Positions 22,932-40,709 of a DNA stretch of 64,000 nt are shown piece by piece; the stretch's first letter is position 1, and every line of letters starts with the position of its first letter. This DNA is from Clostridia bacterium (lineage in GTDB: Bacteria > Bacillota > Clostridia > Oscillospirales > Acutalibacteraceae): NCBI GenBank assembly GCA_024404325.1, contig JAKSQC010000001.1, forward strand, positions 13,340-77,339, written 5' to 3'. The position numbers were made by a program, and so were the translations under genes. Under the pieces are notes generated by a model, which saw only the letters and a list, made by a program, of their open reading frames with translations, was not told where the DNA came from and searched no databases.

Positions 22932-24488
22932 TTATCCCTCCGTAACTTCTGAAAGAGCATTAAATATATTCTTAATCTTTTCTGCCTTAAATTTATAAGA
23001 TGCCTTATTTGCTATAAGTCTTGCACTTATAGGCACTATTGTTTCCTTAACCTCTAAATTGTTTTCTTTTAGCGTTGTTCCCGTTTCGACTATATCGACT
23101 ATTACATCGGACAGTCCTAAAATCGGTGCTATTTCAATAGAGCCGTTAAGGTGAATTATATCAATATCCCTGCCCTTTGTACGGTAAAAGGACTTTGCAA
23201 TATTTGAAAATTTAGTGGCAACCCTTAAGGTCTTTGAATTATCATCGGTAAAACCGTCAGGTCCTGCAACCGCCATACGGCACTTGCCCATATTAAGGTC
23301 TAAAAGTTCGTATACATCAGGCTCATATTCAAGTAAAATATCCTTTCCCGCAACACCTATATCGGCGGCACCGCGTTCAACATATATTGCTACGTCGGAC
23401 GGCTTTACCCAAAAGTATCTTACCTTTTTTTCGATATTCTCGAATATAAGTTTTCTGTTGGTTTCGAGTATTGACGGACATTCAAATCCCGATTTTGCAA
23501 ACAAATTATAAACTTTTTCACCGAGCCTGCCCTTTGGAAGTGCTACGTTTATAAAACCGTCATCAACCGTCTGTGCGTTTTCTTGAAAGTTTATGCGTTC
23601 TAATACATCGGTATAAACGGCAAACCCTATTGCACAGGACTTCCTGCCCATCTTACGCATAAGGCAGTCATACTGACCGCCCGAAAGTACCTCTGTGGGA
23701 ATATCCCTTAAAAAGCCTTTGAAAACTATTCCGTTATAATAGTTTGTATCCCCTACAACCGAAAAGTCAATCACAACATAATTTTTATCTTTAAACCGCT
23801 GTATAACACTTAAAAACTTTGAACAACTGCCATCGTCAATTTCCCTTAAACTTTCTGTAACCTGAGAAACCGTACCGTTTATTGACAGTAATTGTTTTAA
23901 TAAAATAACAGTCTTTTTATCGCAACTATCCTTACATATATTATCTATTTCGTGGAAATTCTTCTCACCTATTGCCTTGTAAAGCGAATATTCAAGTGTT
24001 TTTGATAAATTAAGTTTTTTAATTATATTTGAAAGGATATCCAAATCGGATACTGCAAGCACATATTCCTTTGAAAGCATACTAAGACTATCCAACGCAA
24101 GAGAGAGTACCTCGCAAATATCATTTTCACCGATACTGCCGAAGCACTCTACGCCCGACTGCATAATCTCCTTAAAAGAGCCTGTACCCTTTGATACACG
24201 GTATACATTCTCATTATAAAAGAGTTTTTGTACGGTGTTGTTTTCATCGGTGCTGTTTTTAATTATAGATAATGTAACATCGGGCTTTAACGCCATAAGT
24301 TTACCGCTTGTATCGGTAAAGGTGATGACATTATCCGAAACAAGAAAATCTTTATTTTTTGCATATAAATCATATTCTTCAAACTTACTCATACGGTAAG
24401 GAAGATAACCGTACTTTAAATAAAGTTCCCTTAAAGTAAATATTATTTTTTCACTGTTTTGTAAAACGCTGTCATTCACCGTCATCAT
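22932..24488 (-). CDS. hisZG: Fused ATP phosphoribosyltransferase: HisZ-like regulatory domain + short-form HisG catalytic domain
   Basis: The N-terminal ~310 aa resemble HisRS/HisZ (YLPYRMSKFEEYDLY, LKPDVT). The C-terminal ~210 aa match HisG-S (ALPKGRL..., VKPSDVAIYVERGAADIGVAGKD, DIVETGTTLKEN). The start is ATG 24488 or 24485, 4 or 7 nt after GGAG, overlapping the upstream gene's stop. The ORF track's 24515 start is unlikely. Confidence 0.85.
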   Translation of the reverse strand: MMTVNDSVLQNSEKIIFTLRELYLKYGYLPYRMSKFEEYDLYAKNKDFLVSDNVITFTDTSGKLMALKPDVTLSIIKNSTDENNTVQKLFYNENVYRVSKGTGSFKEIMQSGVECFGSIGENDICEVLSLALDSLSMLSKEYVLAVSDLDILSNIIKKLNLSKTLEYSLYKAIGEKNFHEIDNICKDSCDKKTVILLKQLLSINGTVSQVTESLREIDDGSCSKFLSVIQRFKDKNYVVIDFSVVGDTNYYNGIVFKGFLRDIPTEVLSGGQYDCLMRKMGRKSCAIGFAVYTDVLERINFQENAQTVDDGFINVALPKGRLGEKVYNLFAKSGFECPSILETNRKLIFENIEKKVRYFWVKPSDVAIYVERGAADIGVAGKDILLEYEPDVYELLDLNMGKCRMAVAGPDGFTDDNSKTLRVATKFSNIAKSFYRTKGRDIDIIHLNGSIEIAPILGLSDVIVDIVETGTTLKENNLEVKETIVPISARLIANKASYKFKAEKIKNIFNALSEVTEG

Positions 24489-24780
24489 TTTTCTCCGTTT
24501 CCGACAAGTTGTCAAGTGCTATTCTGTATCCGTTTGAGCCGTAGGTAAGGCAACGGTTTACCCTGCTGATAGTTGCAGTACTTACCCCCACCTTTTCGGC
24601 TATCTTTTGATAACTTAACCCCTCGTCTAAAAGTATAGCGGTATCAAAACGCTGTGCCATATCCTGAATTTCTTTTATGGTACACAAATCGTCAAAAAAC
24701 GCCTCACATTCTTTGGGTGTCTTTATATTCGATATTGCCTTGAAAAGCCTTTGTATTGACCTGTTTTGATAATTAGGCAT
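24472..24780 (-). CDS. TrpR-like YerC/YecD-family DNA-binding protein, first gene of the his operon (HisR-type candidate)
   Basis: 102 aa from ATG 24780 (SD GGGAG). It has the family-typical LCTIKEIQDMAQRF and YQKIAEKVGVSTATISRVNRCL helix-turn-helix. It overlaps the hisZG start by ~14 nt, suggesting translational coupling. Confidence 0.75.
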   Translation of the reverse strand: MPNYQNRSIQRLFKAISNIKTPKECEAFFDDLCTIKEIQDMAQRFDTAILLDEGLSYQKIAEKVGVSTATISRVNRCLTYGSNGYRIALDNLSETEKNDDGE

Positions 24781-24812
24781 AATCTCTCCCTCTAACAATT
24801 TAGTATGTTATC

Positions 24813-24894: not shown

Positions 24895-25878
24895 TTAAAG
24901 TGTTGCCGCCATAACCGCTTTTATTGTATGCATACGGTTTTCCGCTTCATCAAATACTATCGACTGTTCACTCTCAAATACTTCCTCGGTAACCTCCATA
25001 CAGTCAATACCGAACTTTTTATAAATATCCTTACCGATAGCGGTATCAAGGTTATGAAAGGCTGGCAGACAATGCATAAATCTGCATTGTTTTCCTGCAT
25101 TTTCCATAATCGCTTTATTTACCTGATAAGGTGATAAGTCTTTTATACGCTTTTCCCACACGCTGTCAGGCTCGCCCATTGATACCCAAACATCGGTATA
25201 AATAACGTCCGCACCCTTTGTTGCAACAAACGGGTCTTCGATAAATTCAAGCACCGCACCGGTACTTTCGGCAATTTTCTTACATTCATTTATAAGTTCT
25301 TTATTCGGGAAATACTCTGCCAAAGTACAGGCAACGAAGTGCATACCCATTTTAGCACAACCGACCATTAAGGAATTACCCATATTATAACGTGCATCAC
25401 CCATATAAACTAACTTTTTACCCTCAAGTGTGCCAAAATGTTCTTTTATTGTCAAAAAGTCAGCAAGTATCTGTGTCGGATGAAACTCATTTGTAAGACC
25501 GTTCCAAACAGGAACACCTGCGTATTTTGCAAGTTCTTCCACGATAGACTGCTCAAAACCGCGGTATTCTATACCGTCAAACATTCTGCCAAGCACCCTT
25601 GCGGTATCTGCAATACTCTCTTTCTTTCCCATTTGCGAGCCTGACGGGTCAAGATACACGGCGGTCATTCCAAGGTCAGATGCCGCCACCTCAAATGCAC
25701 ACCGCGTACGCGTACTCGTCTTTTCAAATACAAGTGCTATATTTTTACCCGCTTTAATTCTATGCTCAATTCCGTTTTTCTTTTCTTTTTTTAGTTTTGC
25801 AGACAAATCTAAAAGTTCGGATATCTCTTGCGGTGTGAAATCAAGCAGTTTTAAAAAACTTTTTCCCTTTAAATTCAT
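24895..25878 (-). CDS. argF: Ornithine carbamoyltransferase
   Basis: Has STRTR, HPTQ, DVWVSMG and HCLPA motifs. I cannot separate anabolic from catabolic by eye; the ARG box suggests an arginine regulon. Confidence 0.9.
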
Positions 25879-25905
25879 AAATTCTCACCCTGTAATTAAT
25901 TTTTT

Positions 25906-25919
25906 TGAATAATTATGCA
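25906..25919. promoter_or_regulatory. ARG box (ArgR/AhrC operator candidate)
   Basis: TGAATAATTATGCA fits the palindromic TGAAT-N4-ATKCA consensus. It lies 5 nt downstream of the argF -10 element. Confidence 0.45.
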
Positions 25920-25923
25920 ATAA

Positions 25924-25952
25924 ATTATACTGTATAAAACCCTTTTTGTCAA
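25924..25952 (-). promoter_or_regulatory. argF sigma-A promoter
   Basis: On the minus strand: a perfect TTGACA, 17 nt, then a perfect TATAAT. Confidence 0.65.
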
Positions 25953-26032
25953 GTATATTCCGAAATATTCATAAAAATGCAAAAAATATGCAAAAACTGT
26001 GACGTATGGAAAAATTTTGCCGTAAAAAACGC

Positions 26033-26069: not shown

Positions 26070-26339
26070 ATTTTAAAGGCTATGACGAAGACGGCTTTGC
26101 TTTTTTATTCAAGAGAGCGGATGTTTGGTGCAAATTCCGTATAAAAAATCAAAACAGCCCATCACTTCCGAGCCGGATAGCTGAAAATCACAGTAGGCGT
26201 ATCCCGTGATTGCTGCGTAAAGGCATAAGGGTTGTCAGACCCTGAGTGGCAGTATTTACTGCAATTTGAGTGGTACCGCGAGTGTATGAATTTTTCCACA
26301 CCCGTCTCAAAGCAAATGTTTTGAGACGGGTGTTTTTTT
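26070..26339 (+). promoter_or_regulatory. T-box leader 1, specifier AUC (Ile)
   Basis: Stem I base GGCT/AGCC has K-turn TGA..GA, an AGAGAG bulge and a GGTGCAA distal loop. The specifier layout is ATC-A-CTTCC-GA-GCC, with ATC at 26161-26163. The T-box sequence AATTTGAGTGGTACCGCG lies at 26263-26280. The terminator CACCCGTCTCAAA/TTTGAGACGGGTG (26299-26332) is followed by T7. Confidence 0.9.
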
Positions 26340-26355: not shown

Positions 26356-28623
26356 ATGTCGACAGTAAAATCAAACAAACTAATGGAAGTTGCAACACGT
26401 ATTCGTGAAATGCGTCAGATTTTCGGTTTTACCGAAGAAGAAATGGCACAAAAAACCGAAGTGACTTTAAGTGAATATCAAGACTATGAAACAGGAAAAC
26501 TTGATTTTCCTTTTACCTTTATTCATAAATGTTCTCTTGCTTTTGGAATAGGAATTACAGACCTGCTTGAGGGACAAAGTGCCCACCTTTCGTCATATAC
26601 GGTAACAAGAAAAGGTCAAGGTACGCAGACGGCGGAAGAAGACGGCATTGAAATACGCAACTTAGCACCAATGTTCCGTAATAAGATAGCAGAACCTTAT
26701 TGGGTTAAATATGAATATAGTAAAGAACTTCAAAACAAGCCAATTCATTTAACAAAACATTCGGGACAGGAATTTGACCTTGTACTCAAAGGCAGACTGA
26801 AAGTACAAGTAGGTGATAATATAGAGTATTTAAGCGAGGGTGACAGTATCTACTACAACAGTTCTACCCCTCACGGTATGATTGCGGTAGACGGGGAAGA
26901 ATGTTTGTTTGTAGCGGTAGTTCTCCCCGGTGCTAATCAGGAAGAAATACTTATAAGAGATACCCTGCTGACGTCAAAAAACCACAACAAGAAACTTGTC
27001 AGCGAAAAGTTTGTAAGTGTTAAGGAAAATCAGGACGGCTATCCTATATCCATTAACTTTAAGAATGAAGACAAATTTAATTTTGCATTTGATATAGTAG
27101 ACGAGATAGCGAAACGTGAGCCTGACAAACTTGCCTTACTTCACATTTCACAGGATAAAACCGAACGCAGATTTACTTTTAACGATATTAAACGTGCGTC
27201 CAATCAGTGTGCAAACTACTTTAAGTCACTCGGCATTAAAAAGGGTGACAGGGTAATGTTGGTACTCAAACGCCACTATGAATTTTGGTTTTCAATCATT
27301 GCACTTCATAAATTAGGTGCAATAGTAATACCCGCAACAAATCAACTTCAAAAGCACGATTTTGAATATAGATTTAAAGCGGCAGGAGTAAGTGCGATAG
27401 TATGCACTTCCGACGGCGATGTTGCAAATCAGGTTGACTTGGCGTCTGAAAACTACCCCCAACTCACAACAAAAATAATAGTGGGCACAAAAAGAGACGG
27501 TTGGCACAACCTAAAGGAAGAATACAACATTTACAGTGCACACTTTTACCGCACCGAAGATACCCCCTGCGGAAACGAGCCTATGCTTATGTTCTTCACT
27601 TCGGGTACTACGGGATATCCTAAAATTGCAACCCACACATATAAATACCCGTTAGGTCACTATTTAACGGCTAAATATTGGCACGGAGTAAGTGATGACG
27701 GACTTCACCTTACAATATCCGATACGGGTTGGGGTAAAGCGTTATGGGGTAAACTCTACGGTCAGTGGCTATGTGAGGGAGCAGTATTTGCCTATGACTT
27801 TGACCGTTTCGATGCAAGCGAGATACTTCCGATGTTTGCAAAATATCAAATAACAACATTTTGTGCGCCGCCGACAATGCTTAGAATGATGATAAAACAG
27901 GATATATCGCATTATGACTTTTCATCCGTAAAGCGTATGACAACGGCAGGTGAGGCACTTAATCCTGAGGTTTACCGTCAGTTTGAAAAGGCGACGGGAC
28001 TTCAAATTATGGAGGGTTTCGGTCAAACCGAAACCACGCTTACCGTTGCAAACTTTATGGGCGGTTCTCATAAATTAGGTTCTATGGGCAGACCGTCACC
28101 GCTTTATGATATAGATATTATAAATGCCGAGGGCAAAAGCGTTGCAGACGGTGAAACGGGCGAAATCGTAATACGAACAGACAAAGAAGTCCCCTGCGGA
28201 CTGTTTACGGGATACTATAAAGACGAGCAAAAGACAAAAGAGGTATGGCATGACGGATATTACCACACGGGTGATTCGGCGTGGCGTGACGAGGACGGAT
28301 ATTATTGGTACGTAGGTAGAGTTGACGACGTAATCAAGTCTTCGGGTTACAGAATAGGGCCGTTTGAAATTGAAAGCGTTATTATGGAACTGCCTTACGT
28401 TTTAGAGTGTGGAGTATCTGCCGCCCCCGACGAGGTAAGAGGACAGGTAGTAAAAGCAAGCATTGTTCTTGTAAACGGCACTAAGCCTTCAGAGGAACTT
28501 AAAAAGGAAATTCAAAATTACGTAAAAACCCATACTGCACCTTATAAATATCCGCGTATAGTCGAGTTCAAAGACAGTCTGCCTAAAACTGTTAGTGGAA
28601 AAATACAGAGAAATCTGTTATAA
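26356..28623 (+). CDS. Three-domain fusion: XRE HTH + cupin + AMP-forming (medium/short-chain) acyl-CoA synthetase
   Basis: ATG 26356 lies 8 nt after AGGAGG. Residues ~10-75 are HTH_3-like. Residues ~100-195 are a cupin (HSGQEFDLVLKG...GDSIYYNSSTPHGM). The remainder has adenylate-forming motifs FTSGTTGYPK, GFGQTE, YHTGD, GRVDDVIKSSGYRIGPFEIE and PKTVSGKIQR. Confidence 0.9.
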   Translation: MSTVKSNKLMEVATRIREMRQIFGFTEEEMAQKTEVTLSEYQDYETGKLDFPFTFIHKCSLAFGIGITDLLEGQSAHLSSYTVTRKGQGTQTAEEDGIEIRNLAPMFRNKIAEPYWVKYEYSKELQNKPIHLTKHSGQEFDLVLKGRLKVQVGDNIEYLSEGDSIYYNSSTPHGMIAVDGEECLFVAVVLPGANQEEILIRDTLLTSKNHNKKLVSEKFVSVKENQDGYPISINFKNEDKFNFAFDIVDEIAKREPDKLALLHISQDKTERRFTFNDIKRASNQCANYFKSLGIKKGDRVMLVLKRHYEFWFSIIALHKLGAIVIPATNQLQKHDFEYRFKAAGVSAIVCTSDGDVANQVDLASENYPQLTTKIIVGTKRDGWHNLKEEYNIYSAHFYRTEDTPCGNEPMLMFFTSGTTGYPKIATHTYKYPLGHYLTAKYWHGVSDDGLHLTISDTGWGKALWGKLYGQWLCEGAVFAYDFDRFDASEILPMFAKYQITTFCAPPTMLRMMIKQDISHYDFSSVKRMTTAGEALNPEVYRQFEKATGLQIMEGFGQTETTLTVANFMGGSHKLGSMGRPSPLYDIDIINAEGKSVADGETGEIVIRTDKEVPCGLFTGYYKDEQKTKEVWHDGYYHTGDSAWRDEDGYYWYVGRVDDVIKSSGYRIGPFEIESVIMELPYVLECGVSAAPDEVRGQVVKASIVLVNGTKPSEELKKEIQNYVKTHTAPYKYPRIVEFKDSLPKTVSGKIQRNLL

Positions 28624-28637
28624 TTTATAAAAAGGTC

Positions 28638-28666
28638 TTGACAAATTAAAAAAGCAGTGGTATTAT
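28638..28666 (+). promoter_or_regulatory. Sigma-A promoter P2 (drives T-box 2)
   Basis: TTGACA, 17 nt, then TATTAT preceded by TGG. It starts 15 nt after the ACS1 stop. Confidence 0.65.
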
Positions 28667-28672
28667 ATCACT

Positions 28673-28988
28673 TAATTAAAGACTTTGACGAAGAGTGTAT
28701 AAAAATACGTCCTATGCCAAAGCATTTAAACTTGAACTTGAATGTTTTGGCATCAGAGAAATGACGGTTGGTGCAAGTCATCGGAAACGGTTTTTATATT
28801 TGTAGCTTCCGAGTCGGGAAGAAGAACGGGCAAAACCTTAGTAGAACTTCTCCGTGATTGCTGCGTAAATGCATAAGGGTTGTCAGACCCTGAGTGGCAG
28901 TATTTACTGCAATTTGAGTGGTACCGCGGGTGTTTAAGATTATCACACTCGTCTCAAAGTTATCATTGCTTTGGGACGGGTGTTTTTG
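28673..28988 (+). promoter_or_regulatory. T-box leader 2, specifier GUA (Val)
   Basis: Stem I base GACT/AGTC has K-turn TGA..GA, an AGAGA bulge and a GGTGCAA loop. The specifier layout is GTA-G-CTTCC-GA-GTC, with GTA at 28802-28804. The T-box sequence lies at 28911-28928. The terminator (28947-28959 / 28969-28981) is followed by T5. Confidence 0.9.
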
Positions 28989-29015
28989 TATGTCCGTCCG
29001 GAAAGGTTGAGAAAT

Positions 29016-31313
29016 ATGGGACAAAATAACGGTCTTGATTTTAAAATCAAAGAAATGTCTTCAAGAATTCGCGAACTTCGTGAAATCACGGGTTATACAA
29101 CCGAAGAAATGGCGAAAAAGACCGACGTCAGCACCGAGGAATATATAAAATGCGAAAACGGGGAGGCAGACCTTAACTTTGCTTTTATTTACCGTTGTGC
29201 CATTGCCTTTGGTGTGAACGTTACCGATATTATTGAAGGTGTAAGCCCGACGCTTACTTCTTATACTCTTACAAGAAGCGGTCAAGGTCAAAAGATAGAC
29301 CAAGCACACGGAATGGTATACTATAATTTAGCGGCTGCTTTTCAAAACAGAATAGCAGAGCCTTTATACGTTTGCAGTGCATACAGTGAAGAGGCACAAC
29401 ATAAAGATATAGAGTTGACAACACATTCAGGACAGGAATGTGATATAGTAGTTTCAGGTCATCTTACGGTGCAGGTAGGCCGCCACAAGGAAACATTGGG
29501 ACCCGGCGACAGTATTTATTATGACAGTTCCACACCTCACGGTATGATTGCGGTAAACGGTGAAGACTGCATATTTTACGCAATAGTACTTAATCCTACG
29601 GGCGAGCCGATACCCGAACTTTCAAGTACGGTTGAAAATGTTACTTTAAAAGAAACAAAACCGTCCAAAAAGGATAATAAGGAAAGAATATACCGTAAGT
29701 TTATAGACACCGAGGTTGACGAAAACGGCACACCTACAAAAATAACGTTTAAAAATGAAGATAAGTTTAATTTTGCATTTGATTTGGTGGACGCACTTGC
29801 AGACCGCGAACCCGATAAACTTGCAATGCTTCATATATCAAGGGATATGACAGAACGCCGTTTTACCTTTAAAGATATAAAAAAGGCATCTAATCAGTGT
29901 GCTAACTATTTTAAGTCTTTGGGCATTAAAAAAGGTGACAGAGTAATGCTTTGTCTTAAGCGTCACTATCAATTCTGGTTCTGTATGTTAGGTCTTAATA
30001 AACTCGGTGCTGTTGCGATACCTGCCGTAAATCAGTTGCAGGAACACGATTTTGAGTACCGTTTTAAGTCTGCCGGTATAAGTGCGGTTATTTGTACTGC
30101 CGACGGCGACACTGCACATCAAATGGACTTGGCGGCGGAAAAATGTCCCGACCTTACGATAAAACTTATAGTAAACGGTACGCGTGAGGGTTGGAAAAAC
30201 TTTGACGAAGAATACCCCCTTTTCAGCACACATTTTAAAAGAACCGCCGATTCACCCTGCGGTAATGACACTATGATTATGTATTTTACGTCGGGTACTT
30301 CGGGTTATCCGAAAATCGCAACCCATTCTCATAAGTATCCTTTAGGGCATTTCCATACTGCAAAGTATTGGCATCACGTTGACCCTGACGGACTTCACCT
30401 TACAATATCCGATACCGGTTGGGCAAAGGCTATGTGGGGTAAACTTTACGGACAGTGGCTATGCGAGGCGGCAACCTTTGTTTATGACTTTGACCGTTTT
30501 GATGCAAGCGAAATACTGCCGATGTTCGCAAAGTATAATATTACTACTTTTTGTGCACCGCCTACAATACTCAGAATGATGGTTAAGCAGGATATATCAA
30601 AGTATGATTTTTCATCGGTAAAGCATATGACTACGGCGGGAGAGGCGCTTAACCCCGAAGTTTACCGTCAGTTCAAAAATGCTACGGGACTTAAAATTAT
30701 GGACGGTTTCGGTCAAACCGAATCGACTATGATTATAGGAAATCTTGTAGGTATGCAACATAAATTAGGCTCTATGGGTAAACCCGCACCTATTTATGAC
30801 GTTGACCTTATTGATGAAAACGGTAACACGGTAGCCGTAGGCGAAACAGGTGAAATTGTTATAAACGTTAAAAACGGTGCACCTTGCGGACTGTTTAAGG
30901 GTTATTATAAAGACGAAGAAAAAACCAAAGAGGTCTGGCACGACGGATATTACCACACGGGTGATTCTGCGTGGCGTGATGAGGACGGATACTATTGGTA
31001 CGTAGGCAGAGTTGACGACGTAATCAAGTCTTCGGGTTACAGAATAGGGCCGTTTGAAATCGAAAGTGTTATTATGGAACTGCCTTACGTTTTAGAGTGC
31101 GGCGTATCAGCCGCCCCCGACGAGGTAAGAGGACAGGTAGTAAAGGCAAGCATTGTTCTTGTAAACGGCACTAAGCCTTCAGAGGAACTTAAAAAGGAAA
31201 TTCAAACTTATGTTAAAACACATACCGCACCTTATAAATATCCTCGTATAGTAGAATTCCGCGACAGTCTGCCTAAGACGGTTACGGGTAAAATACAAAG
31301 GAACAAACTTTAA
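29016..31313 (+). CDS. Paralogous XRE HTH + cupin + AMP-forming acyl-CoA synthetase fusion
   Basis: Same three-domain order as 26356-28623. Has FTSGTSGYPK, GFGQTE and YHTGD. The C-terminal ~115 aa are identical to the paralog. The start is ATG 29016; the ORF track start 28971 lies inside the T-box terminator. Confidence 0.9.
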   Translation: MGQNNGLDFKIKEMSSRIRELREITGYTTEEMAKKTDVSTEEYIKCENGEADLNFAFIYRCAIAFGVNVTDIIEGVSPTLTSYTLTRSGQGQKIDQAHGMVYYNLAAAFQNRIAEPLYVCSAYSEEAQHKDIELTTHSGQECDIVVSGHLTVQVGRHKETLGPGDSIYYDSSTPHGMIAVNGEDCIFYAIVLNPTGEPIPELSSTVENVTLKETKPSKKDNKERIYRKFIDTEVDENGTPTKITFKNEDKFNFAFDLVDALADREPDKLAMLHISRDMTERRFTFKDIKKASNQCANYFKSLGIKKGDRVMLCLKRHYQFWFCMLGLNKLGAVAIPAVNQLQEHDFEYRFKSAGISAVICTADGDTAHQMDLAAEKCPDLTIKLIVNGTREGWKNFDEEYPLFSTHFKRTADSPCGNDTMIMYFTSGTSGYPKIATHSHKYPLGHFHTAKYWHHVDPDGLHLTISDTGWAKAMWGKLYGQWLCEAATFVYDFDRFDASEILPMFAKYNITTFCAPPTILRMMVKQDISKYDFSSVKHMTTAGEALNPEVYRQFKNATGLKIMDGFGQTESTMIIGNLVGMQHKLGSMGKPAPIYDVDLIDENGNTVAVGETGEIVINVKNGAPCGLFKGYYKDEEKTKEVWHDGYYHTGDSAWRDEDGYYWYVGRVDDVIKSSGYRIGPFEIESVIMELPYVLECGVSAAPDEVRGQVVKASIVLVNGTKPSEELKKEIQTYVKTHTAPYKYPRIVEFRDSLPKTVTGKIQRNKL

Positions 31314-31315
31314 TT

Positions 31316-31981
31316 ATGGAAAACTTTAAGCGTATTACCCTTTTGTGCGGTCACTACGGAAGCGGTAAAACAAATATCGCGGTCAATATGGCATACGAAC
31401 TTAAAAAGAAATATTCAAATGTTGCCATAGCCGACCTCGATATAGTAAACCCGTACTTTCGCACCAAGGACAGCATAAAAGAGTTTGAAAAAAGGGATAT
31501 AAAGTTAATTTGCTCAAAATATGCAGGCTCTAATGTAGATATACCCGCCCTCCCACAGGAGATGTATGCACTTACAGACGATAGGCAAATGCACTGTATA
31601 ATAGACGTCGGCGGGGACGACAGAGGTGCGTTGGCACTCGGTCGCCTATCCCCTGCAATAAAAGAAGAAAACGATTATGATATGCTTATGGTTATAAACT
31701 GTTACCGTCCGCTGACGCGTGACGTACCCTCAACCATAAATATTATGCGTGAAATAGAAACCGCTTCGGGTATTAAGTTTACAGGTCTTATAAACAACTC
31801 AAATTTAGGTAAGCTTACAACAAAGCAAACGGTTATCGATTCACTTAAATTTGCCGACGGTGTTTCAAAGGCTTCGGGACTTCCGATATTTTGCACCGCA
31901 GTAAAACAAGGTTTATTTGACAGAAAAGACGGCAGTTTAAAAAACGTCTTTCCGATAGAACTTCAAGAAAACATATACTGA
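31316..31981 (+). CDS. Uncharacterised SIMIBI-class P-loop NTPase (CooC/GPN-loop-like)
   Basis: 221 aa with Walker A GHYGSGKT, DLDIVNPYF, Walker-B-like IIDVGGDD and an NNSN block. It starts 2 nt after the ACS2 stop. Confidence 0.7.
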   Translation: MENFKRITLLCGHYGSGKTNIAVNMAYELKKKYSNVAIADLDIVNPYFRTKDSIKEFEKRDIKLICSKYAGSNVDIPALPQEMYALTDDRQMHCIIDVGGDDRGALALGRLSPAIKEENDYDMLMVINCYRPLTRDVPSTINIMREIETASGIKFTGLINNSNLGKLTTKQTVIDSLKFADGVSKASGLPIFCTAVKQGLFDRKDGSLKNVFPIELQENIY

Positions 31982-31996
31982 TAAGGAGCGATGAAT

Positions 31997-32203
31997 ATGG
32001 CAAAACTTAAGTTCAAAACAGATTTTTGTAAAGGTTGCGGACTGTGTGTAGACGCTTGTCCAAAAAAACTGTTAAAACTCGCAACCGACAAAATCAATAA
32101 AAAGGGACATCATCCGGCAGAAATAACCGATCAAGATTCCTGTACGGGTTGCACAAGTTGTGCAATAATGTGTCCGGACTGTGTAATAACGGTAGAAAGG
32201 TAA
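31997..32203 (+). CDS. 2-oxoacid:ferredoxin oxidoreductase delta subunit (2x[4Fe-4S] ferredoxin)
   Basis: Has CKGCGLCVDACP and CTGCTSCAIMCP motifs. ATG 31997 lies 8 nt after AGGAG. Confidence 0.85.
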   Translation: MAKLKFKTDFCKGCGLCVDACPKKLLKLATDKINKKGHHPAEITDQDSCTGCTSCAIMCPDCVITVER

Positions 32204-32211
32204 GTGAAATT

Positions 32212-33273
32212 ATGGCTGATAAAGTACTTATGAAAGGTAACGAAGCCTTAGCGGAAGCCGCAATATTAGCAGGTTGCCGTCACTACTTCGGTTATCCTAT
32301 CACCCCGCAGACAGAGGTTGCGGCTTATATGGCAAAAAAGATGCCGAAAATCGGCGGAACGTTTTTGCAGGCGGAAAGTGAAATTGCCGCTATAAATATG
32401 GTATACGGTGTTTCTTCGGCAGGTCACCGCGTTATGACATCATCTTCAAGCCCCGGAATTTCCTTAAAGGGCGAGGGAATATCATATCTTGCCGGTGCAG
32501 ACCTTCCTGCACTCGTAGTAAACGTACAGCGTGGGGGTCCGGGACTCGGAGGCATACAACCGAGCCAGTCCGACTATTTTCAGGCTACAAAGGGTGCCGC
32601 ACACGGCGACTTCCATATGATAGTATTAGCACCTGCATCTGTTCAGGAAATGGCAGAGCTGACCATTAAGGGATTTGAACTTGCAGACAAGTACAGAATG
32701 ACCTCTATGATTTTGGCAGACGGTACTATGGGACAGATGATGGAACCTGTTGACCTTGATTTTAAAATCACACCCGAACCCGAAAAGCCTTGGGCAACTA
32801 CGGGTACAAAACTCAAAAGAAATCATAACATAGTAAATTCTCTTTCCCTTGTTCCCGAAGAACTTGAACAACTCAATATAGCACGTTATGAGCGTTATAA
32901 GACGGTTGAAGAAAACGAATGTATGTATGAGGAATACTTAGTAGACGATGCCGATATAGTGCTTGTAGCATTCGGTATTACTTCGAGAGTTTCAAAACAC
33001 GCTATTGACAATGCAAGAGAACAAGGCGTAAAGGTCGGTCTTATCCGTCCCATTACCCTTTGGCCGTTCCCGAAAGCACCATTCCAAAAGGCAGTAGGAC
33101 ACGCCAAAGCATTTATAACGGTAGAACTTAATATGGGACAGATGATAGAGGACGTTAAACTTGCAACTAATTGTAAGGTTCCGGTACATCTTTGTAACCG
33201 TGTAGGCGGTATGATTCCTGACCATACACAGGTATATGATAAAATTATGGAAATCAACGAGGAGGTAAAATAA
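32212..33273 (+). CDS. 2-oxoacid:ferredoxin oxidoreductase alpha subunit (VorB/KorA-like)
   Basis: Has N-terminal KGNEALAEAAILAGCRHYFGYPITPQTE and MTSSSSPGISL. The start is ATG 32212; the ORF track start 32149 overlaps the delta gene. Confidence 0.88.
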   Translation: MADKVLMKGNEALAEAAILAGCRHYFGYPITPQTEVAAYMAKKMPKIGGTFLQAESEIAAINMVYGVSSAGHRVMTSSSSPGISLKGEGISYLAGADLPALVVNVQRGGPGLGGIQPSQSDYFQATKGAAHGDFHMIVLAPASVQEMAELTIKGFELADKYRMTSMILADGTMGQMMEPVDLDFKITPEPEKPWATTGTKLKRNHNIVNSLSLVPEELEQLNIARYERYKTVEENECMYEEYLVDDADIVLVAFGITSRVSKHAIDNAREQGVKVGLIRPITLWPFPKAPFQKAVGHAKAFITVELNMGQMIEDVKLATNCKVPVHLCNRVGGMIPDHTQVYDKIMEINEEVK

Positions 33274-33275
33274 CT

Positions 33276-34028
33276 ATGGTAGTATTTGAAAAACCGCACG
33301 CACTTACCGACGTGCCTTTACACTATTGCCCCGGTTGTACTCACGGTATCGTACATAGGCTCGTTGCCGAAGCAATCGACGAACTCGGAATTGAGGGACA
33401 GACAATAGGTATAGCACCCGTTGGTTGTTCGGTAATGGCTTACGATTACTTTAACTGCGATATGATAGAAGCCGCTCACGGACGTGCACCGGCAGTGGCA
33501 ACAGGCGTTAAAAGAGCCGACCCCGATAATCACATAGTATTTACCTATCAGGGCGACGGTGACCTTGCTTCCATAGGTATGGCTGAAACCGTACACGCAG
33601 CGGCAAGAAATGAAAATATAACCGTTATTTTTATAAACAATGCAATTTACGGTATGACAGGCGGTCAGATGGCACCTACTTCCCTGCCCGGTCAGGTTAC
33701 ACAGACTTCTCCTTACGGCAGAGATACATCCCACTGCGGTTATCCTATTAGGGTTTGCGAAATGCTCGCAACATTAGAAGGACCCGAGTATCTTGAAAGG
33801 GTAACCGTAAATAATGTTGCTAACGTACGCAAAGCAAAAAAGGCCATTAAAAAGGCTTTCCAAAACCAAATAGATAAAAAAGGTTTTTCACTAATAGAGG
33901 TTGTATCTTCCTGTCCTACCAACTGGGGTATGACACCGCAAGACGCACTTAAGTGGATAGACGATAATATGCTTCCATATTATCCTCTTGGCGTTTATAA
34001 AGACCGTTCTGCAAAGGAGGAAAAGTAA
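33276..34028 (+). CDS. 2-oxoacid:ferredoxin oxidoreductase beta subunit (TPP-binding)
   Basis: Has a CPGCTHG cluster ligand block and the GDGDLASIG...NNAIYGMTGGQ TPP motif. Confidence 0.88.
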   Translation: MVVFEKPHALTDVPLHYCPGCTHGIVHRLVAEAIDELGIEGQTIGIAPVGCSVMAYDYFNCDMIEAAHGRAPAVATGVKRADPDNHIVFTYQGDGDLASIGMAETVHAAARNENITVIFINNAIYGMTGGQMAPTSLPGQVTQTSPYGRDTSHCGYPIRVCEMLATLEGPEYLERVTVNNVANVRKAKKAIKKAFQNQIDKKGFSLIEVVSSCPTNWGMTPQDALKWIDDNMLPYYPLGVYKDRSAKEEK

Positions 34029-34570
34029 TGAAACTTCCAATACAGTGCTTATTTTCAGGCTTTGGCGGACAGGGTATCCTGTTTTCCGGCAAATTTATGG
34101 CATATAAGGGTATGATTGAGGATAAATTTGTATCATGGCTTCCTTCCTACGGTCCCGAAATGCGTGGCGGTACCGCAAGTTGCAGTGTGGTTATAAGCGA
34201 TAGGGAGATTGCATCTCCCATTATTTCAACACCCGATATTTTGGTTGCAATGAATTTACCGTCACTTGATAAGTACGAAAAAATCGTAAAAAAAGGCGGT
34301 ACAATATTTGTTGACTCAACCCTTATCGAAAGAAAGGTTGAAAGGGACGATGTAAACGTATATTATGTCCCTGCAACCAAACTTGCAAGCGATAATAATA
34401 TGCCGACTCTTGCAAATATGATACTTGTCGGTAAAATATTAAAGGTAAGAAATGAATATTCAGAAGAAAGTGTCCGTGCGGCTCTTACAAAGGTAGTTTC
34501 CGCAAAACACGCCGATTTGCTTGAAGTCAATATGAAAGCAATGCAAATAGGTGCTTCTTACGAGGAATAA
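34028..34570 (+). CDS. 2-oxoacid:ferredoxin oxidoreductase gamma subunit
   Basis: 180 aa with GFGGQGILFSGK and YGPEMRGG blocks. Its ATG overlaps the beta stop (ATGA-type junction). Confidence 0.85.
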   Translation: MKLPIQCLFSGFGGQGILFSGKFMAYKGMIEDKFVSWLPSYGPEMRGGTASCSVVISDREIASPIISTPDILVAMNLPSLDKYEKIVKKGGTIFVDSTLIERKVERDDVNVYYVPATKLASDNNMPTLANMILVGKILKVRNEYSEESVRAALTKVVSAKHADLLEVNMKAMQIGASYEE

Positions 34571-34589: not shown

Positions 34590-35651
34590 ATGAATATCAG
34601 AGTTGAAAACACACAGCATCCGTCATCAATGCCGGGTAGTGAATTTGGATTCGGCAGAATTTTTTCAGACCATATGTTTATGATGGACTACAATGCAAAC
34701 GAGGGTTGGCATGATGCAAGAATAGTCCCGTTTGGAAGACTTTCCATTCACCCTGCTTCCACCGTACTTCACTACGGTGCAGAGATATTTGAGGGACTTA
34801 AGGCATACCGCCGTCCCGATGGCGGAGTACAACTTTTCAGACCTATTGAAAATATCCGCCGTATGAATGATTCGGCAGAGCGTTTGTGCTTACCGCAAAT
34901 TCCCGAAGATGAAGCTATGGAAATACTCACCACATTTATCAGTCACGAAAAGGAGTGGACACCGTCAGCCCCTGGAACAACACTTTACATTCGTCCTTTC
35001 CTGTTCGGTAACGATGAATCACTCGGCGTACACGCAGTGAAGAACGCTACTTTCGTAATTATTGCATCACCTACGGGAAGTTATTATAAAGAGGGCTTTA
35101 AGCCGGTACGCATTATGATTGAAGATGAGGACGTAAGAGCAGTACGAGGCGGTACGGGTTATGCTAAATGCGGAGGTAACTACGCAGCAAGCACACGTGC
35201 AGGAGAGAGAGCCGAACAGATGGGTTATTCTCAAGTACTTTGGCTTGACGGTGTTGAGCGTAAGTACATAGAGGAAGTAGGAGCAATGAACGTTATGTTC
35301 AAAATAAACGGCGAAATCGTTACTCCTAAACTTACAGGCTCAATACTCCCCGGTATTACAAGAAAGTCCTGTATTGAACTTTTAAGAAGCAAGGGTTATA
35401 AGGTTTCAGAGCGTCTGCTCAGTCTCCAAGAACTCGTAAGTGCTATGACTGACGGCACACTCGAGGAAGCTTGGGGTTGCGGAACAGCGGCAGTAGTATC
35501 ACCTATCGGTGAGCTTTGCTATAAAGATATTAAGTACGCTATCAACGGCGGTAAAATCGGTGAGCTCACACAAAGCCTTTACGATACCCTTACGGGTATA
35601 CAGTTTGGCAGAAGTGAAGACCCGTTCGGTTGGACTGTTCGTATAGACTAA
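34590..35651 (+). CDS. ilvE: Branched-chain amino acid aminotransferase (long, ~350-aa type)
   Basis: Has FGRIFSDHMF, YGAEIFEGLKAYR, GGTGYAKCGGNYAAS, EEVGAMNVMF and PGITR blocks. Confidence 0.9.
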   Translation: MNIRVENTQHPSSMPGSEFGFGRIFSDHMFMMDYNANEGWHDARIVPFGRLSIHPASTVLHYGAEIFEGLKAYRRPDGGVQLFRPIENIRRMNDSAERLCLPQIPEDEAMEILTTFISHEKEWTPSAPGTTLYIRPFLFGNDESLGVHAVKNATFVIIASPTGSYYKEGFKPVRIMIEDEDVRAVRGGTGYAKCGGNYAASTRAGERAEQMGYSQVLWLDGVERKYIEEVGAMNVMFKINGEIVTPKLTGSILPGITRKSCIELLRSKGYKVSERLLSLQELVSAMTDGTLEEAWGCGTAAVVSPIGELCYKDIKYAINGGKIGELTQSLYDTLTGIQFGRSEDPFGWTVRID

Positions 35652-35700: not shown

Positions 35701-35975
35701 AAATTTCAAATGCATTGATGGAATTATTCCTTTTTTGTATGTCTATTTCAGAGAGCCGTCGGTTGGTGCAAGACGGAAAGGCTTTAAAGGGAAGTCTCAT
35801 TTCGGAGCAGAACTGCCTGAAATTTTAGTAAGCAGTTCCGGTTTGACCCCGTTACCGTGGTCAAGGGCTTGTTTGAGCCTATTTAAGTTGACCGTTTATT
35901 CGGTAAACAGGGTGGTACCGCGGATTAAATTATTCGTCCCTGAAACTGATGTATTTCAGTTTCAGGGATTTTTTG
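35701..35975 (+). promoter_or_regulatory. T-box leader 3, specifier CUC (Leu)
   Basis: Stem I base TGC/GCA has K-turn TGA..GA, an AGAGAG bulge and a GGTGCAA loop. The specifier layout is CTC-A-TTTC-GGA-GCA, with CTC at 35796-35798. The T-box sequence GGGTGGTACCGCGG lies around 35908-35922. The terminator TCCCTGAAACTGA/TCAGTTTCAGGGA (35937-35968) is followed by T6. Confidence 0.9.
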
Positions 35976-35996: not shown

Positions 35997-37376
35997 ATGA
36001 ATAATATTAAAATTTCAGATTTAACTCTTTGTCTTGTAAGCAGTGATTTGACATTTAAGGAAAAAATAGAAATTGCAAGACAACTTGAAAAGTTACAACT
36101 TGACTGCATTGAACTTCCCGAAATCAAAAAGGTTAAATCTGATACCCTTTTTATACGCACTGTTTCTTCTTTTCTTAAAAACAGTATACTTTCGGTTTGT
36201 GCGGGAAGCAGTATAGAGAGTATAGACAATGCCGTTACGGCACTTAGTGTATGCAAAAAGCCGATGATAAGAATAGAACTTCCGGTATCAACTGTAAGAA
36301 TGGAATATGATTTTCATAAAAAAGCACCAAAAATGCTCGAATGGATAAATAAAACCGTTTGCTATGCTTCGCAAAAATGTGACGTTGAGTTTTGTGCACT
36401 TGATGCCACAAGAGCCGAGTCTGAATTTTTAATTGAAGCACTGAAAACCGCAGAGTCGGCAGGTGCAAAGATAATAACCGTTTGCGATGATGCAGGCGAA
36501 ATGCTTACCGATGAATTTACCGAATTTATAAAGCGTATAAAGAGCAATATATCAACGCCGATATACATTAACTGTAATAATAAAAACGGTATGGCACTTT
36601 CCCTTGCGGCTATTTCAATAAAGAACGGCGATGCACAAGGTGTTAAGACTTCGGTAAACGGTGACACCGTAAGTTTAGAGAATATATCAACTTTTATAAG
36701 AAACTGCGGAGAAAAACACAGTATAATATCAAATATAAGATACACAGAACTTTACCGTACTATCTCCCAAATCAAACGTATTACGGGAAATGTTACTGAA
36801 AGCAATGAAAAGACCGTATCCACAGTTACTTCAAACGATGAAATAAAACTCGATAAAAATGATGACAAAAACACCGTAATCACAATGGTGGCAAGACTCG
36901 GTTATGACCTTTCAAAAGAGGATGAAGACAATGTTTATGAGCAGTTTTTGCGTGTAGCCGATAAAAAGACAGTCGGAGCAAAGGAACTTGATGCGATAGT
37001 AATCAGTTCTGCTTTACAAGTACCGCCCACCTATAAACTTGATAATTATATAGTAAACAGCGGTAATTCTATTTCCTCAAGTGCACAGGTAACGCTTAAA
37101 CACTTTGACAGTGTAACTCAAGGCATAAGCATAGGCGACGGACCTATTGACGCCGCATTTTTGGCTATTGAGCAGATAATAGGTTGTCACTACGATTTAG
37201 AGGACTTCCAAATTCAAACCGTAACCGAGGGCAAAGAGGCAATCGGTTCTGCAATAATCAAACTGCGTTCGGCAGGTAAAATATATTCAGGCAACGGCAT
37301 TTCAACCGATATAATAGAGGCAAGCATAAGGGCGTACTTAAACGCACTTAACAAAATTGCCTACGAGGAGGTATAA
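35997..37376 (+). CDS. 2-isopropylmalate synthase-like protein with degenerate active site (pseudoenzyme) and intact LeuA C-terminal regulatory domain
   Basis: It is colinear with LeuA along its whole length, but the catalytic motifs are replaced: DTTLRDGEQ becomes DLTLCLVSS, HCHNDLG becomes NCNNKNG, and GIGERAGN becomes NGDTVSLEN. The C-terminus (GDGPIDAAFLAIEQI..., ISTDIIEASIRAYLNALNK) matches the LeuA_dimer/allosteric domain. Confidence 0.8.
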   Translation: MNNIKISDLTLCLVSSDLTFKEKIEIARQLEKLQLDCIELPEIKKVKSDTLFIRTVSSFLKNSILSVCAGSSIESIDNAVTALSVCKKPMIRIELPVSTVRMEYDFHKKAPKMLEWINKTVCYASQKCDVEFCALDATRAESEFLIEALKTAESAGAKIITVCDDAGEMLTDEFTEFIKRIKSNISTPIYINCNNKNGMALSLAAISIKNGDAQGVKTSVNGDTVSLENISTFIRNCGEKHSIISNIRYTELYRTISQIKRITGNVTESNEKTVSTVTSNDEIKLDKNDDKNTVITMVARLGYDLSKEDEDNVYEQFLRVADKKTVGAKELDAIVISSALQVPPTYKLDNYIVNSGNSISSSAQVTLKHFDSVTQGISIGDGPIDAAFLAIEQIIGCHYDLEDFQIQTVTEGKEAIGSAIIKLRSAGKIYSGNGISTDIIEASIRAYLNALNKIAYEEV

Positions 37377-39916: not shown

Positions 39917-40709
39917 ACTTTTTGTTATTGATGCACACTGCCACGTCTACCCCGATAAAATTGCAACCATAGCATCGGGCAATACCGACCGTTTTTACGA
40001 TACAGTATCTAAACACGATGGCAAGGTGGGTACGCTCCTTGATTTAAAAGAGGAAAGCGGTATAGACCGCTTTTTGGTGCAGTCAGTAGCAACCACGCCG
40101 AAACAGGTACAAAGAATAAATCAGTTTATTGCCGATACCGTAAATAACAGTAACGGTATTATGACGGGACTTGGTACTCTCCACCCTGACAGTGCAGATT
40201 TAAAGGCGGACGTAATGCAAATAAAGCAACTTGGTCTTCACGGGGTAAAACTGCACCCCGATATCCAACAGTTTAAAATTGATGATTACAGATGTCTTAA
40301 AATTTATGAACTCTGCGAGCAGGAAAATTTACCTGTTCTTATGCACACGGGTGACAACAGATATGATTTTTCCAATCCAAACCGTCTTTTACCCGTTATA
40401 AAAATATTTGATAAATTAACCCTTGTAGCCGCCCATCTCGGCGGATATTCGGTGTGGGAAGAAGCAGTACAAAAACTTGCAGGTATTAAAAATCTGTATT
40501 TTGACTGTTCATCATCATTTTTTTGGTTAAACCCAAAACGTGCAAAGGAGATAATTGAAATTTACGGTACTGACCGTGTATTATTCGGAAGTGACTATCC
40601 GATGTGGTCGCCCAAAGCAGAACTTGATACCTTGTTATCTCTTGGCTTTGGCGATGATGATTTAAAGATGATTTTATCTGAAAATGCTAAAAAAATTTAT
40701 AATATTTAA
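39903..40709 (+). CDS. Amidohydro_2-family metal-dependent TIM-barrel enzyme (hydrolase/decarboxylase superfamily)
   Basis: Has IDAHCHVYP (HxH), LHPD, MHTGD, AHLGG and FGSDYP. It overlaps the upstream gene by 14 nt. Confidence 0.8.
   Translation: MVNGKLFVIDAHCHVYPDKIATIASGNTDRFYDTVSKHDGKVGTLLDLKEESGIDRFLVQSVATTPKQVQRINQFIADTVNNSNGIMTGLGTLHPDSADLKADVMQIKQLGLHGVKLHPDIQQFKIDDYRCLKIYELCEQENLPVLMHTGDNRYDFSNPNRLLPVIKIFDKLTLVAAHLGGYSVWEEAVQKLAGIKNLYFDCSSSFFWLNPKRAKEIIEIYGTDRVLFGSDYPMWSPKAELDTLLSLGFGDDDLKMILSENAKKIYNI

Follow-up and report, generated by a model that had tools for sequence, protein, structure and literature searches.

Regulators of the XRE-cupin type (PuuR, PauR, PsdR, ErfA, 1Y9Q) consist of an N-terminal Cro/C1-type helix-turn-helix (HTH) followed by a cupin, about 185 amino acids (aa) in all, and their genes adjoin the metabolic genes they go with (PMC7901475). 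The same two-domain fold is found in HppE, HEPD and MPnS (1ZZ6, 6B9S), Fe(II) enzymes of phosphonate metabolism. One polypeptide can also combine enzyme activity with a domain of the DNA-binding type, as in BirA, PutA and NadR, and BirA is itself an adenylate-forming ligase with an N-terminal HTH. DNA binding has been demonstrated for these three proteins and also for FadD1, an acyl-CoA synthetase without an HTH that was reported to bind promoters (PMC12754631). Macs of Methanosarcina acetivorans (3ETC), a medium-chain enzyme whose substrate is described as 2-methylbutyrate (PMC10455477), is made of a single module, as is MbcS of Staphylococcus aureus; both are branched short/medium-chain acyl-CoA synthetases. 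Here we report on a stretch of 64,000 nucleotides (nt), called the window throughout (Clostridia bacterium, Acutalibacteraceae; assembly GCA_024404325.1, contig JAKSQC010000001.1, positions 13,340 to 77,339 of the forward strand), in which two neighbouring genes, A and B, each encode an HTH-cupin module that continues in frame into an acyl-CoA synthetase of the Macs/MbcS type.

By domain architecture, the products of A and B resemble BirA, PutA and NadR, but a cupin lies between HTH and enzyme and DNA binding is, in their case, doubtful. Like the XRE-cupin regulators, the module has the HTH in front of the cupin, a similar length and a place beside metabolic genes; unlike them, it is fused in frame to a 540-aa enzyme, its partner belongs to the same synthetase family in archaea and bacteria alike, its HTH is acidic and not basic, and no operator was found in the promoter regions scanned. 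With HppE, HEPD and MPnS the module shares the two-domain fold, an aligned 2-His-1-Glu triad and, in the case of HppE, an acidic helical domain (net charge -4), yet pathway and gene context differ, as the genes around A and B point to conversion of isoacids to amino acids and no phosphonate genes accompany them. What sets these proteins apart from the characterised repressors is the permanent coupling of an XRE-cupin module to an enzyme of the ANL family, which here takes the form of a fusion, even though they do not establish a new category, since regulator-enzyme domain fusions and HTH-cupin enzymes both have precedents.

Integrity and spread of the fused genes

Genes A and B stand in tandem on the plus strand and fill positions 26356-31313 of the window (Table 1), so that the fusion is indeed present twice, as an earlier note on this DNA had claimed. 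The same note had read an HTH, a cupin and a complete adenylate-forming enzyme in one frame, and Pfam finds all four corresponding domains in both proteins, with approximate borders common to the two (HTH aa 15-75, Cupin_2 131-190, AMP-binding 250-630, AMP-binding_C terminal). In A, HTH_19 reaches E 3.7e-6 and 27.2 bits, below its cut-off of 30.2, and HTH_3 E 7.6e-5 and 23.1 bits, above its cut-off of 23, along with Cupin_2 (E 8.3e-11, 41.9 bits, cut-off 27.2), AMP-binding (E 1.5e-64) and AMP-binding_C (E 6.9e-20). In B, HTH_19 (E 1.3e-7, 31.8 bits) and HTH_3 (E 2e-5, 25.0 bits) are both above the same cut-offs, as is Cupin_2 (E 1.3e-11, 44.5 bits), and the ligase domains score E 1.1e-63 and 1.7e-19, respectively. 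The HTH scores are therefore near the curated thresholds, HTH_3 passing in both proteins and HTH_19 in B only; this profile search, which the note had proposed, places HTH_3 and Cupin_2 above cut-off in A and B, and the motif it had quoted (HSGQE...GDSIYY.SSTPHGM) is found in both. The two proteins are 69% identical overall, their ligase parts roughly 70-90% and their N-terminal modules about 50-55%, which agrees with the description of the modules as only moderately similar.

A true start downstream of the module, considered at the time as a reason to abandon the fusion, is ruled out. Each open reading frame (ORF) opens 16-33 nt past a T-box terminator hairpin, the ATG of A being preceded at 10 nt by AGGAGG; the N-terminal 200 aa are kept in frame in 74 A-type and 58 B-type orthologues; and the module is under strong purifying selection, with ratios of nonsynonymous to synonymous substitution rates (dN/dS) of 0.03-0.08 (A/B: HTH 0.084/0.050, cupin 0.055/0.025, ligase 0.044/0.037). 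Because the ORFs begin just past the hairpins and carry 200 in-frame conserved codons with low dN/dS, the upstream starts are not annotation errors. No stop codon interrupts the interval between cupin and ligase in A or B, and the linker of neither holds a Met codon from which free ligase could be made (GTG and TTG starts were not looked at).

The product of gene A is identical to a GenBank protein from a metagenome-assembled genome (MAG), MCQ2440299.1, labelled only 'AMP-binding protein [Clostridia bacterium]', and a protein search retrieved more than 120 clusters with the same Pfam architecture, 752-806 aa long (nearly all 752-757). A scan of one genome per species yielded 581 relatives, and the results below rest on the best 80 of these, which are without exception MAGs of Oscillospirales-type Clostridia from gut, faeces or rumen and, in nearly every case, align with the query over almost the whole length. 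From these 80 loci, 132 full-length fused genes were extracted, 74 of them A-type and 58 B-type. In about 60 of the 80 loci B follows A in tandem, and more divergent fused proteins, with module identity down to 35-52%, were also found, which indicates that fusion and duplication are old. The sequences are thus already public, under generic names only, but our full-text literature searches returned no publication on either the fusion or the unfused partner described below; targeted reading of the MbcS paper and of a Methanococcus maripaludis transposon-fitness preprint likewise turned up nothing on the fusion or the partner protein.

The unfused partner gene and the isoacid operon

When 1.8 billion representative sequences were searched with aa 1-205, 2267 matches were obtained, many of which are free-standing proteins of 182-195 aa that align over aa 8-190 at 30-46% identity, and a profile of 41 such homologues finds the family in Clostridia, Bacteroidota and methanogens. 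Three genomic contexts place the small gene 18-36 nt upstream of an AMP-binding gene of 552-558 aa. For a count of this linkage, 80 metagenome loci were chosen by the small protein alone (scan query: 12 closer sequences), and 69 of them carried at least 600 nt of downstream sequence. A Macs-type synthetase follows directly on the same strand in 66 of the 69 by a conservative filter, the other three being truncated hits; the gap is typically 14-30 nt, roughly 19 nt, and the synthetases of these pairs are 62-71% identical to 3ETC. The reverse test started from proteins 71-91% identical to 3ETC, and in all four methanogen operons inspected (a Methanosarcinaceae genome, M. maripaludis C5, a Methanobacteriaceae contig and a Methanosarcinales-type contig) a module gene of 182-184 aa lies directly upstream of the synthetase, with ferredoxin and oxidoreductase genes following. 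In one of the four (L171, 3501-5402) the HTH-cupin gene overlaps the synthetase start by 4 nt. Given a module-synthetase gene pair conserved across both prokaryotic domains, the window genes represent a Rosetta-stone fusion, and the N-terminal 195 aa of A and B is, judging from these comparisons of sequence and gene order, the covalently attached form of a dedicated synthetase partner protein.

Five metagenome loci (L112, L123, L127, L132, L164) that had appeared to be independent fusions were rejected, as a stop codon follows the cupin in all. In 12 loci of the unfused pair (L129-L131, L136, L138, L145, L149, L155, L158, L161, L165, L166), TAATATTGAAA precedes the small gene by about 25 nt, its distance to the start codon being constant and no Shine-Dalgarno sequence being present; it was rejected as an operator and reads as a Bacteroidota-type -7 promoter element, which in turn speaks for a taxonomically widespread pair. 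Some Methanosarcinales (P0421-P0425, P0441, P0442, L171) have a Macs-type synthetase with a C-terminal ferredoxin (Fer4), about 600-635 aa long.

As for the enzyme itself, the C-terminal 540 aa match 3ETC with E 4.7e-187 and 52% identity over 518 aa, and the adenylation motifs are complete (TSGTTGYPK, YHTGD and SGKIQR, the last with the catalytic Lys). The best NCBIfam model is S. aureus MbcS, with 443.5 bits for A and 452.2 bits for B, short of the equivalog cut-off of 850, and both synthetases are, by these scores, relatives of MbcS and not equivalogs. Only two ligase positions are fixed differently between A and B, Gly460/Ala and Leu463/Met, and both are in the motif GW[G/A]KA[L/M]W, which we take to be the acyl-pocket segment of acetyl-CoA synthetase; the pocket residue is Gly in A, as in Macs, and Ala in B.

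It has long been known that cellulolytic Clostridia of the rumen and gut need isoacids (isobutyrate, 2-methylbutyrate, isovalerate), which are fed to dairy cattle, and the route from isoacid to acyl-CoA, followed by reductive carboxylation and transamination, is physiologically established in rumen bacteria and methanococci. At the level of genes, the control of isoacid uptake into amino acids is, to our knowledge, ill defined. Downstream of B, the window carries genes for a P-loop NTPase, a 2-oxoacid:ferredoxin oxidoreductase and a branched-chain aminotransferase, and this order is conserved in 33 complete loci and in many truncated ones; the P-loop NTPase, which may be an Fe-S maturation factor for the oxidoreductase, is kept between synthetases and oxidoreductase in more than 50 loci, and the aminotransferase gene closes the operon in more than 40.

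A T-box leader precedes each of the two genes, so that T-boxes and fusions do co-exist as the earlier note had assumed. Against Rfam RF00230 the A leader scores 88.9 bits (E 2.8e-19) and the B leader 74.6 bits (E 1.3e-15), both below the gathering score of 93. With the specifier column calibrated on the third T-box of the window (CUC, Leu, before a LeuA-like gene), the codons are AUC (Ile) for A and GUA (Val) for B. Among the roughly 40 distinct leader variants listed for each gene, AUC is conserved in the A leaders (62 aligned) and GUA or GUC in the B leaders (54 aligned, one row being all gaps), and in both cases the flanks vary. In the fused lineage, a T-box core precedes 63 of 69 A genes as well as 54 B genes; it is absent upstream of the unfused pairs (0 of 71 loci). 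The promoters of both genes are, by sequence, of the sigma-70 type, and the -35 and extended -10 elements of P1 are conserved in 55-60 orthologous loci. Rfam matches to mir-4524 at 26298-26333 were rejected as chance, the sequence being that of the T-box terminator hairpin.

In the pathway that we propose, A and B would be the entry enzymes of an operon that turns branched short-chain fatty acids into branched-chain amino acids: either synthetase would convert its acid to the acyl-CoA, the 2-oxoacid:ferredoxin oxidoreductase would carboxylate it reductively, and the aminotransferase would complete the route. Gene A would be transcribed when tRNA-Ile is uncharged and gene B when tRNA-Val is. 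The Ile and Val T-boxes, the content of the operon and the Gly/Ala pocket difference together suggest a preference for 2-methylbutyrate, isobutyrate or isovalerate. A probably activates 2-methylbutyrate for Ile, since it has the pocket Gly in common with Macs, the 2-methylbutyrate enzyme, and B, with Ala at this position, probably activates isobutyrate for Val.

The modules appear to have specialised more than the ligases. Between orthologues the module is 63-76% identical and between paralogues 41-60%, as against 73-89% and 69-87% for the ligase, and fixed A/B differences number 18 in module and linker and two in the 515-aa ligase. At positions 98 and 100, A has Ile and Ile, B has Met and Tyr, and the unfused proteins have Tyr and Tyr; these positions align with HppE Tyr103 and Tyr105, on a strand that presumably lines the HppE active site. 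Such differences would be expected if the two cupins bind different small molecules, and together with the Ile and Val T-boxes and the contrast of 18 fixed differences with two, they strengthen an early suggestion that the modules recognise different ligands. Gene conversion was considered as the cause of this clustering of A/B differences and rejected, as A-B identities within and between genomes are equal in the module; in the ligase they differ by 0.02-0.03. A conversion tract of 270 nt is confined to the C-terminal domain (28264-28533 and 30954-31223, 94-96% nt identity against a background of 63-82%), and the C-termini of both copies are likewise identical in locus L042.

Table 1. Features of the fused-gene operon, in window coordinates (all on the plus strand)
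Feature	Position	Strand	Remarks
Promoter P1	26033..26061	+	TTGACA-17-TAATAT with TG
T-box leader of gene A	26073..26312	+	specifier AUC (Ile) at 26161-26163
Terminator hairpin of A T-box and T run	26298..26333	+	
Gene A, HTH-cupin module fused to acyl-CoA synthetase	26356..28623	+	755 aa, ATG to stop
A: XRE-type HTH-like five-helix domain	26380..26580	+	aa 9-75, net charge -5 to -6
A: cupin barrel	26731..26931	+	aa 126-192; His135, Glu139, His173 invariant
A: Macs/MbcS-type acyl-CoA synthetase	26995..28620	+	aa 214-755; pocket motif GWGKALW
Promoter P2	28638..28666	+	TTGACA-17-TATTAT with TG
T-box leader of gene B	28676..28959	+	specifier GUA (Val) at 28802-28804
Terminator hairpin of B T-box and T run	28945..28983	+	
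Gene B, paralogous HTH-cupin-synthetase fusion	29016..31313	+	765 aa, ATG to stop
B: HTH-like domain	29046..29246	+	aa 11-77, net charge -5
B: cupin barrel	29397..29597	+	aa 128-194; His137, Glu141, His175
B: acyl-CoA synthetase part	29685..31310	+	aa 224-765; pocket motif GWAKAMW
P-loop NTPase	31316..31981	+	221 aa; starts 3 nt after gene B; weak CbiA/ParA/NUBPL-like matches
2-oxoacid:ferredoxin oxidoreductase alpha	32212..33273	+	POR_N, PFOR_II; ORF opens at 32149
2-oxoacid:ferredoxin oxidoreductase beta	33276..34028	+	thiamine pyrophosphate-binding
2-oxoacid:ferredoxin oxidoreductase gamma	34028..34570	+	
Class IV (branched-chain) aminotransferase	34590..35651	+	Aminotran_4; ORF opens at 34551

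Sensor, DNA reader, scaffold or enzyme

The module had been assigned to the PuuR type. The domain pair stands, but a close kinship does not, as the module is only 19.6% identical to PuuR of Escherichia coli MG1655 (E 1e-5) and, in profile and predicted fold, HppE is as near as an XRE-cupin regulator. The family profile matches 1Y9Q, an uncharacterised Vibrio XRE-cupin protein, with E 3e-13 in two separate domain hits, and the Fe(II) epoxidase HppE with E 1.6e-12 in a single hit that spans residues 8-182. Modelled by itself with AlphaFold, the module is confidently predicted (predicted local distance difference test, pLDDT, 87.7; HTH 80-97) to have five helices and a barrel, and Foldseek ranks 1Y9Q (1.6e-13) and HppE (1.7e-13; TM 0.48-0.52, identity 17-19%) first, then HEPD/MPnS and single-domain metal cupins. 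Because the two-domain architecture is common to both classes, similarity alone cannot separate a repressor from an enzyme. None of 59 fused and unfused sequences departs from His135, Glu139 and His173, and these residues align with HppE His138, Glu142 and His180, which we take to be its iron ligands; PuuR retains the same His/Glu/His pattern, and the triad therefore suggests a metal site and not catalysis.

One rival reading is a catalytic cupin, by which A and B would be bifunctional proteins with an HppE-like metalloenzyme performing an added step on the acid, the acyl-adenylate or the acyl-CoA. In its favour, HppE, HEPD and MPnS are matched along the whole module both by profile and by predicted fold, and the metal triad is invariant, but identity to HppE is only 17-19%, the triad, being shared with PuuR-type regulators, is not diagnostic, and the three-step route from acid to amino acid requires no extra reaction. 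HppE, HEPD and MPnS, moreover, use O2 or peroxide, which fits poorly with strict anaerobes, and as the hosts would be strict anaerobes, oxygenase chemistry is unlikely. We regard this as the least probable of the explanations entertained here.

Additional residues of the module deserve mention. Cys59 and Cys183 are invariant in an alignment of 46 fused proteins, and 131 of the 132 fused orthologues carry Cys59; A-type proteins keep His57 and B-type proteins Cys44, and the consensus of the unfused family has no Cys at these columns (aa 57, 59 and 183 of gene A correspond to nt 26524-26532 and 26902-26904). One possibility is that these Cys and His residues make up a second metal site; another is that they link helical domain and barrel in a redox-sensitive way.

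The earlier note had put forward, as its first option, a DNA-binding trigger enzyme with autoregulation layered on the T-boxes, and our results leave this unsupported. Over the aligned 60-64 residues, the HTH of A and that of B each carry a net charge of -5; the aligned homologues, which include a few fragments of fused proteins, span 0 to -11, with most values between -3 and -10. Among the comparators, the corresponding values are +4 for the 434 repressor, +3 for 1Y9Q, +2 for PuuR, 0 for a PbsX-family repressor and -1 for DdrOC. In alignment with the 434 repressor, Gln28, Gln29, Ser30 and Gln33 fall on module positions 38, 39, 40 and 43, Lys40 on Asp50, which is invariant among the 132 orthologues, and Arg43 on a hydrophobic residue. 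Glu or Asp occupies position 39 in 64 of 74 A-type and 41 of 58 B-type proteins, Glu occupies position 40 in 43 of the 74 A-type and all 58 B-type proteins, and positions 38, 42 and 43 vary; among exposed stretches, conservation is highest in helix 4 (PFTFIHKC) and not in the 'recognition' helix. The surface of the module HTH that would contact DNA is thus not basic or polar, and canonical DNA binding by it appears doubtful. Scans for k-mers and inverted repeats in 60 A promoters, 54 B promoters and 66 upstream regions of unfused genes found no conserved palindrome in any of the three sets and yielded nothing beyond AT tracts that resemble UP elements, stem I of the T-box, and the -35 and extended -10 elements. 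A 20-bp imperfect palindrome at 26005-26024, which had been a candidate operator, was rejected, as it lies among ARG-box-like repeats and is not conserved in orthologues.

Our tentative preference, which we hold at somewhat less than even confidence, is for the second option of the earlier note, namely that the module is a cis-acting sensor that binds a ligand or metal and modulates the attached ligase; on present comparisons an allosteric cupin fits better than a trigger enzyme does. In such a mechanism the cupin would hold a divalent metal on its invariant 2-His-1-Glu triad and bind a small molecule, for which Ile or Val as end product, the substrate acid and the acyl-CoA are candidates, and the bound module would modulate the ligase in cis, for instance as feedback on the ATP-costly first committed step. 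The HTH-like helical domain would be a structural or dimerisation element, as in HppE, for whose HTH-like domain we know of no DNA binding, and not a sequence-specific DNA reader. Transcription would be left to the T-boxes, and control overall would have two levels, both amino-acid-specific. The sensor model would account for the obligate linkage, the fusion and the acidic HTH. A broader version of it, to which we give slightly less credence, is that the partner of Macs-type synthetases represents a new enzyme-regulatory subunit and not a transcription factor, in which a metal cupin would sense Ile, Val or the isoacid and throttle the ligase, and the HTH would have become a protein-protein interface; if this were true, the fused and duplicated genes of the window would be the clearest natural evidence for a physical partnership.

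Several observations weigh against the sensor model, and most of them favour a trigger enzyme, that is, a working XRE-cupin repressor, dimeric through its cupin, which would bind an operator and let go of it when the cupin or the ligase (as in BirA) binds a ligand, adding autoregulation at the protein level to that by T-boxes. The module is homologous to XRE-cupin proteins, and its HTH fold is intact, at or above Pfam thresholds (HTH_3 in both proteins, HTH_19 in B) and under strong purifying selection. The experimentally characterised XRE-cupin proteins that we found are all DNA-binding local repressors that travel, and are exchanged, with their target genes (PMC7901475), and a conserved pair of regulator and target gene would be exactly the pattern of that family. 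In the unfused loci the module gene is the first of the synthetase operon (69 loci, or 66 of 69 by the conservative filter), a common place for an autorepressor. DdrOC binds DNA despite its net charge of -1, so that charge and substituted contact residues argue against DNA binding by the module without excluding it. Downstream of the -10 element and ahead of the ribosome-binding site, one unfused lineage (L081-L083, L114) shows TTTAAATTGC-N5-GCAATTCAAA, an inverted repeat that could be an operator. There is also the precedent of FadD1, an acyl-CoA synthetase reported as a transcription factor (PMC12754631).

The synthetase can also do without the module, which likewise counts against a sensor: 3ETC was crystallised as the synthetase chain alone, and in locus L042 (9621-11381) a B-type copy with the GWAKA pocket is a 586-aa ORF that has no module, the A copy keeping its own. 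From these two cases the module can be taken as accessory and not essential for catalysis. Furthermore, in an AlphaFold model of the full-length protein the cupin has a pLDDT below 50, the alignment being shallow (sequences 78-100% identical), and docking of the module on the ligase is unreadable.

A trigger enzyme nonetheless seems to us somewhat less likely than a sensor. The HTH is acidic, with conserved acidic residues where the 434 repressor contacts DNA; exposed positions of the 'recognition' helix vary among orthologues that are 65-80% identical; no palindrome is conserved in the 60 P1 regions or in P2, where the AT-rich blocks above the -35 element look like UP elements; amino-acid-specific T-boxes already gate transcription; and a repressor made at enzyme stoichiometry, twice per operon, would be unusual.

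The tight linkage of module and synthetase genes has yet another possible explanation, by which the module senses nothing and is a scaffold that docks the synthetase, assembles it into dimers or tetramers, or tethers it to the ferredoxin oxidoreductase for acyl-CoA channelling. The linkage does resemble translational coupling (gaps of 14-30 nt, and one overlap of 4 nt), other fusions exist along the pathway, as Methanosarcinales have proteins of 627-635 aa that join synthetase and ferredoxin, the exposed surface of helix 4 is highly conserved in the fused forms, and the helical domain of HppE is known to build its oligomer. However, most unfused bacterial loci have no oxidoreductase gene beside the pair, and a scaffold would give the invariant 2-His-1-Glu triad no obvious purpose and leave the paralogue-specific residues at pocket-aligned positions unexplained. 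We consider it improbable.

Surroundings of the operon and significance

The operon has neighbours of some interest in the window. A second enzyme fusion, at 37379-39916 (+), joins a xylose-isomerase-like TIM barrel (AP_endonuc_2) to an AMP-binding synthetase in 845 aa, and belongs to the operon of the Leu (CUC) T-box, after the LeuA-like gene and before an Amidohydro_2 gene (35706-35944, 35997-37376, 39903-40709). In L081-L083 the same three families are encoded by separate adjacent genes beside the unfused HTH-cupin and synthetase pair. On the other side, ARG-box-like AT-rich repeats (TGAATAATTATGCA, TTCATAAAAATGCAAA and others) at 25900-26025 adjoin P1 of gene A and surround the promoter of a divergent ornithine carbamoyltransferase gene, 24895-25878 (-). 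A 527-aa ORF ahead of hisD, 22932-24515 (-), looks by eye like a HisZ-HisG fusion, and its start is overlapped by the end of a TrpR-family gene, 24472-24798 (-), with a Pfam Trp_repressor match of E 7e-29.

In this locus a whole operon is conserved, its T-boxes are specific for particular amino acids and its entry step is divided between two specialised enzymes; the locus also brings to light an unstudied module that, in archaea and bacteria alike, goes with one synthetase family. Should it prove to be an allosteric sensor, the module would be a new class of regulatory subunit for adenylate-forming enzymes and, after HppE, the second example of an HTH fold reused beyond DNA binding; if it binds DNA, A and B would be new trigger enzymes comparable to BirA. 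Either outcome can be tested with recombinant protein, and M. maripaludis offers a tractable host of the unfused pair. Isoacid assimilation in rumen and gut anaerobes is a long-standing question of practical relevance, and the rival mechanisms set out here could be told apart by simple experiments.

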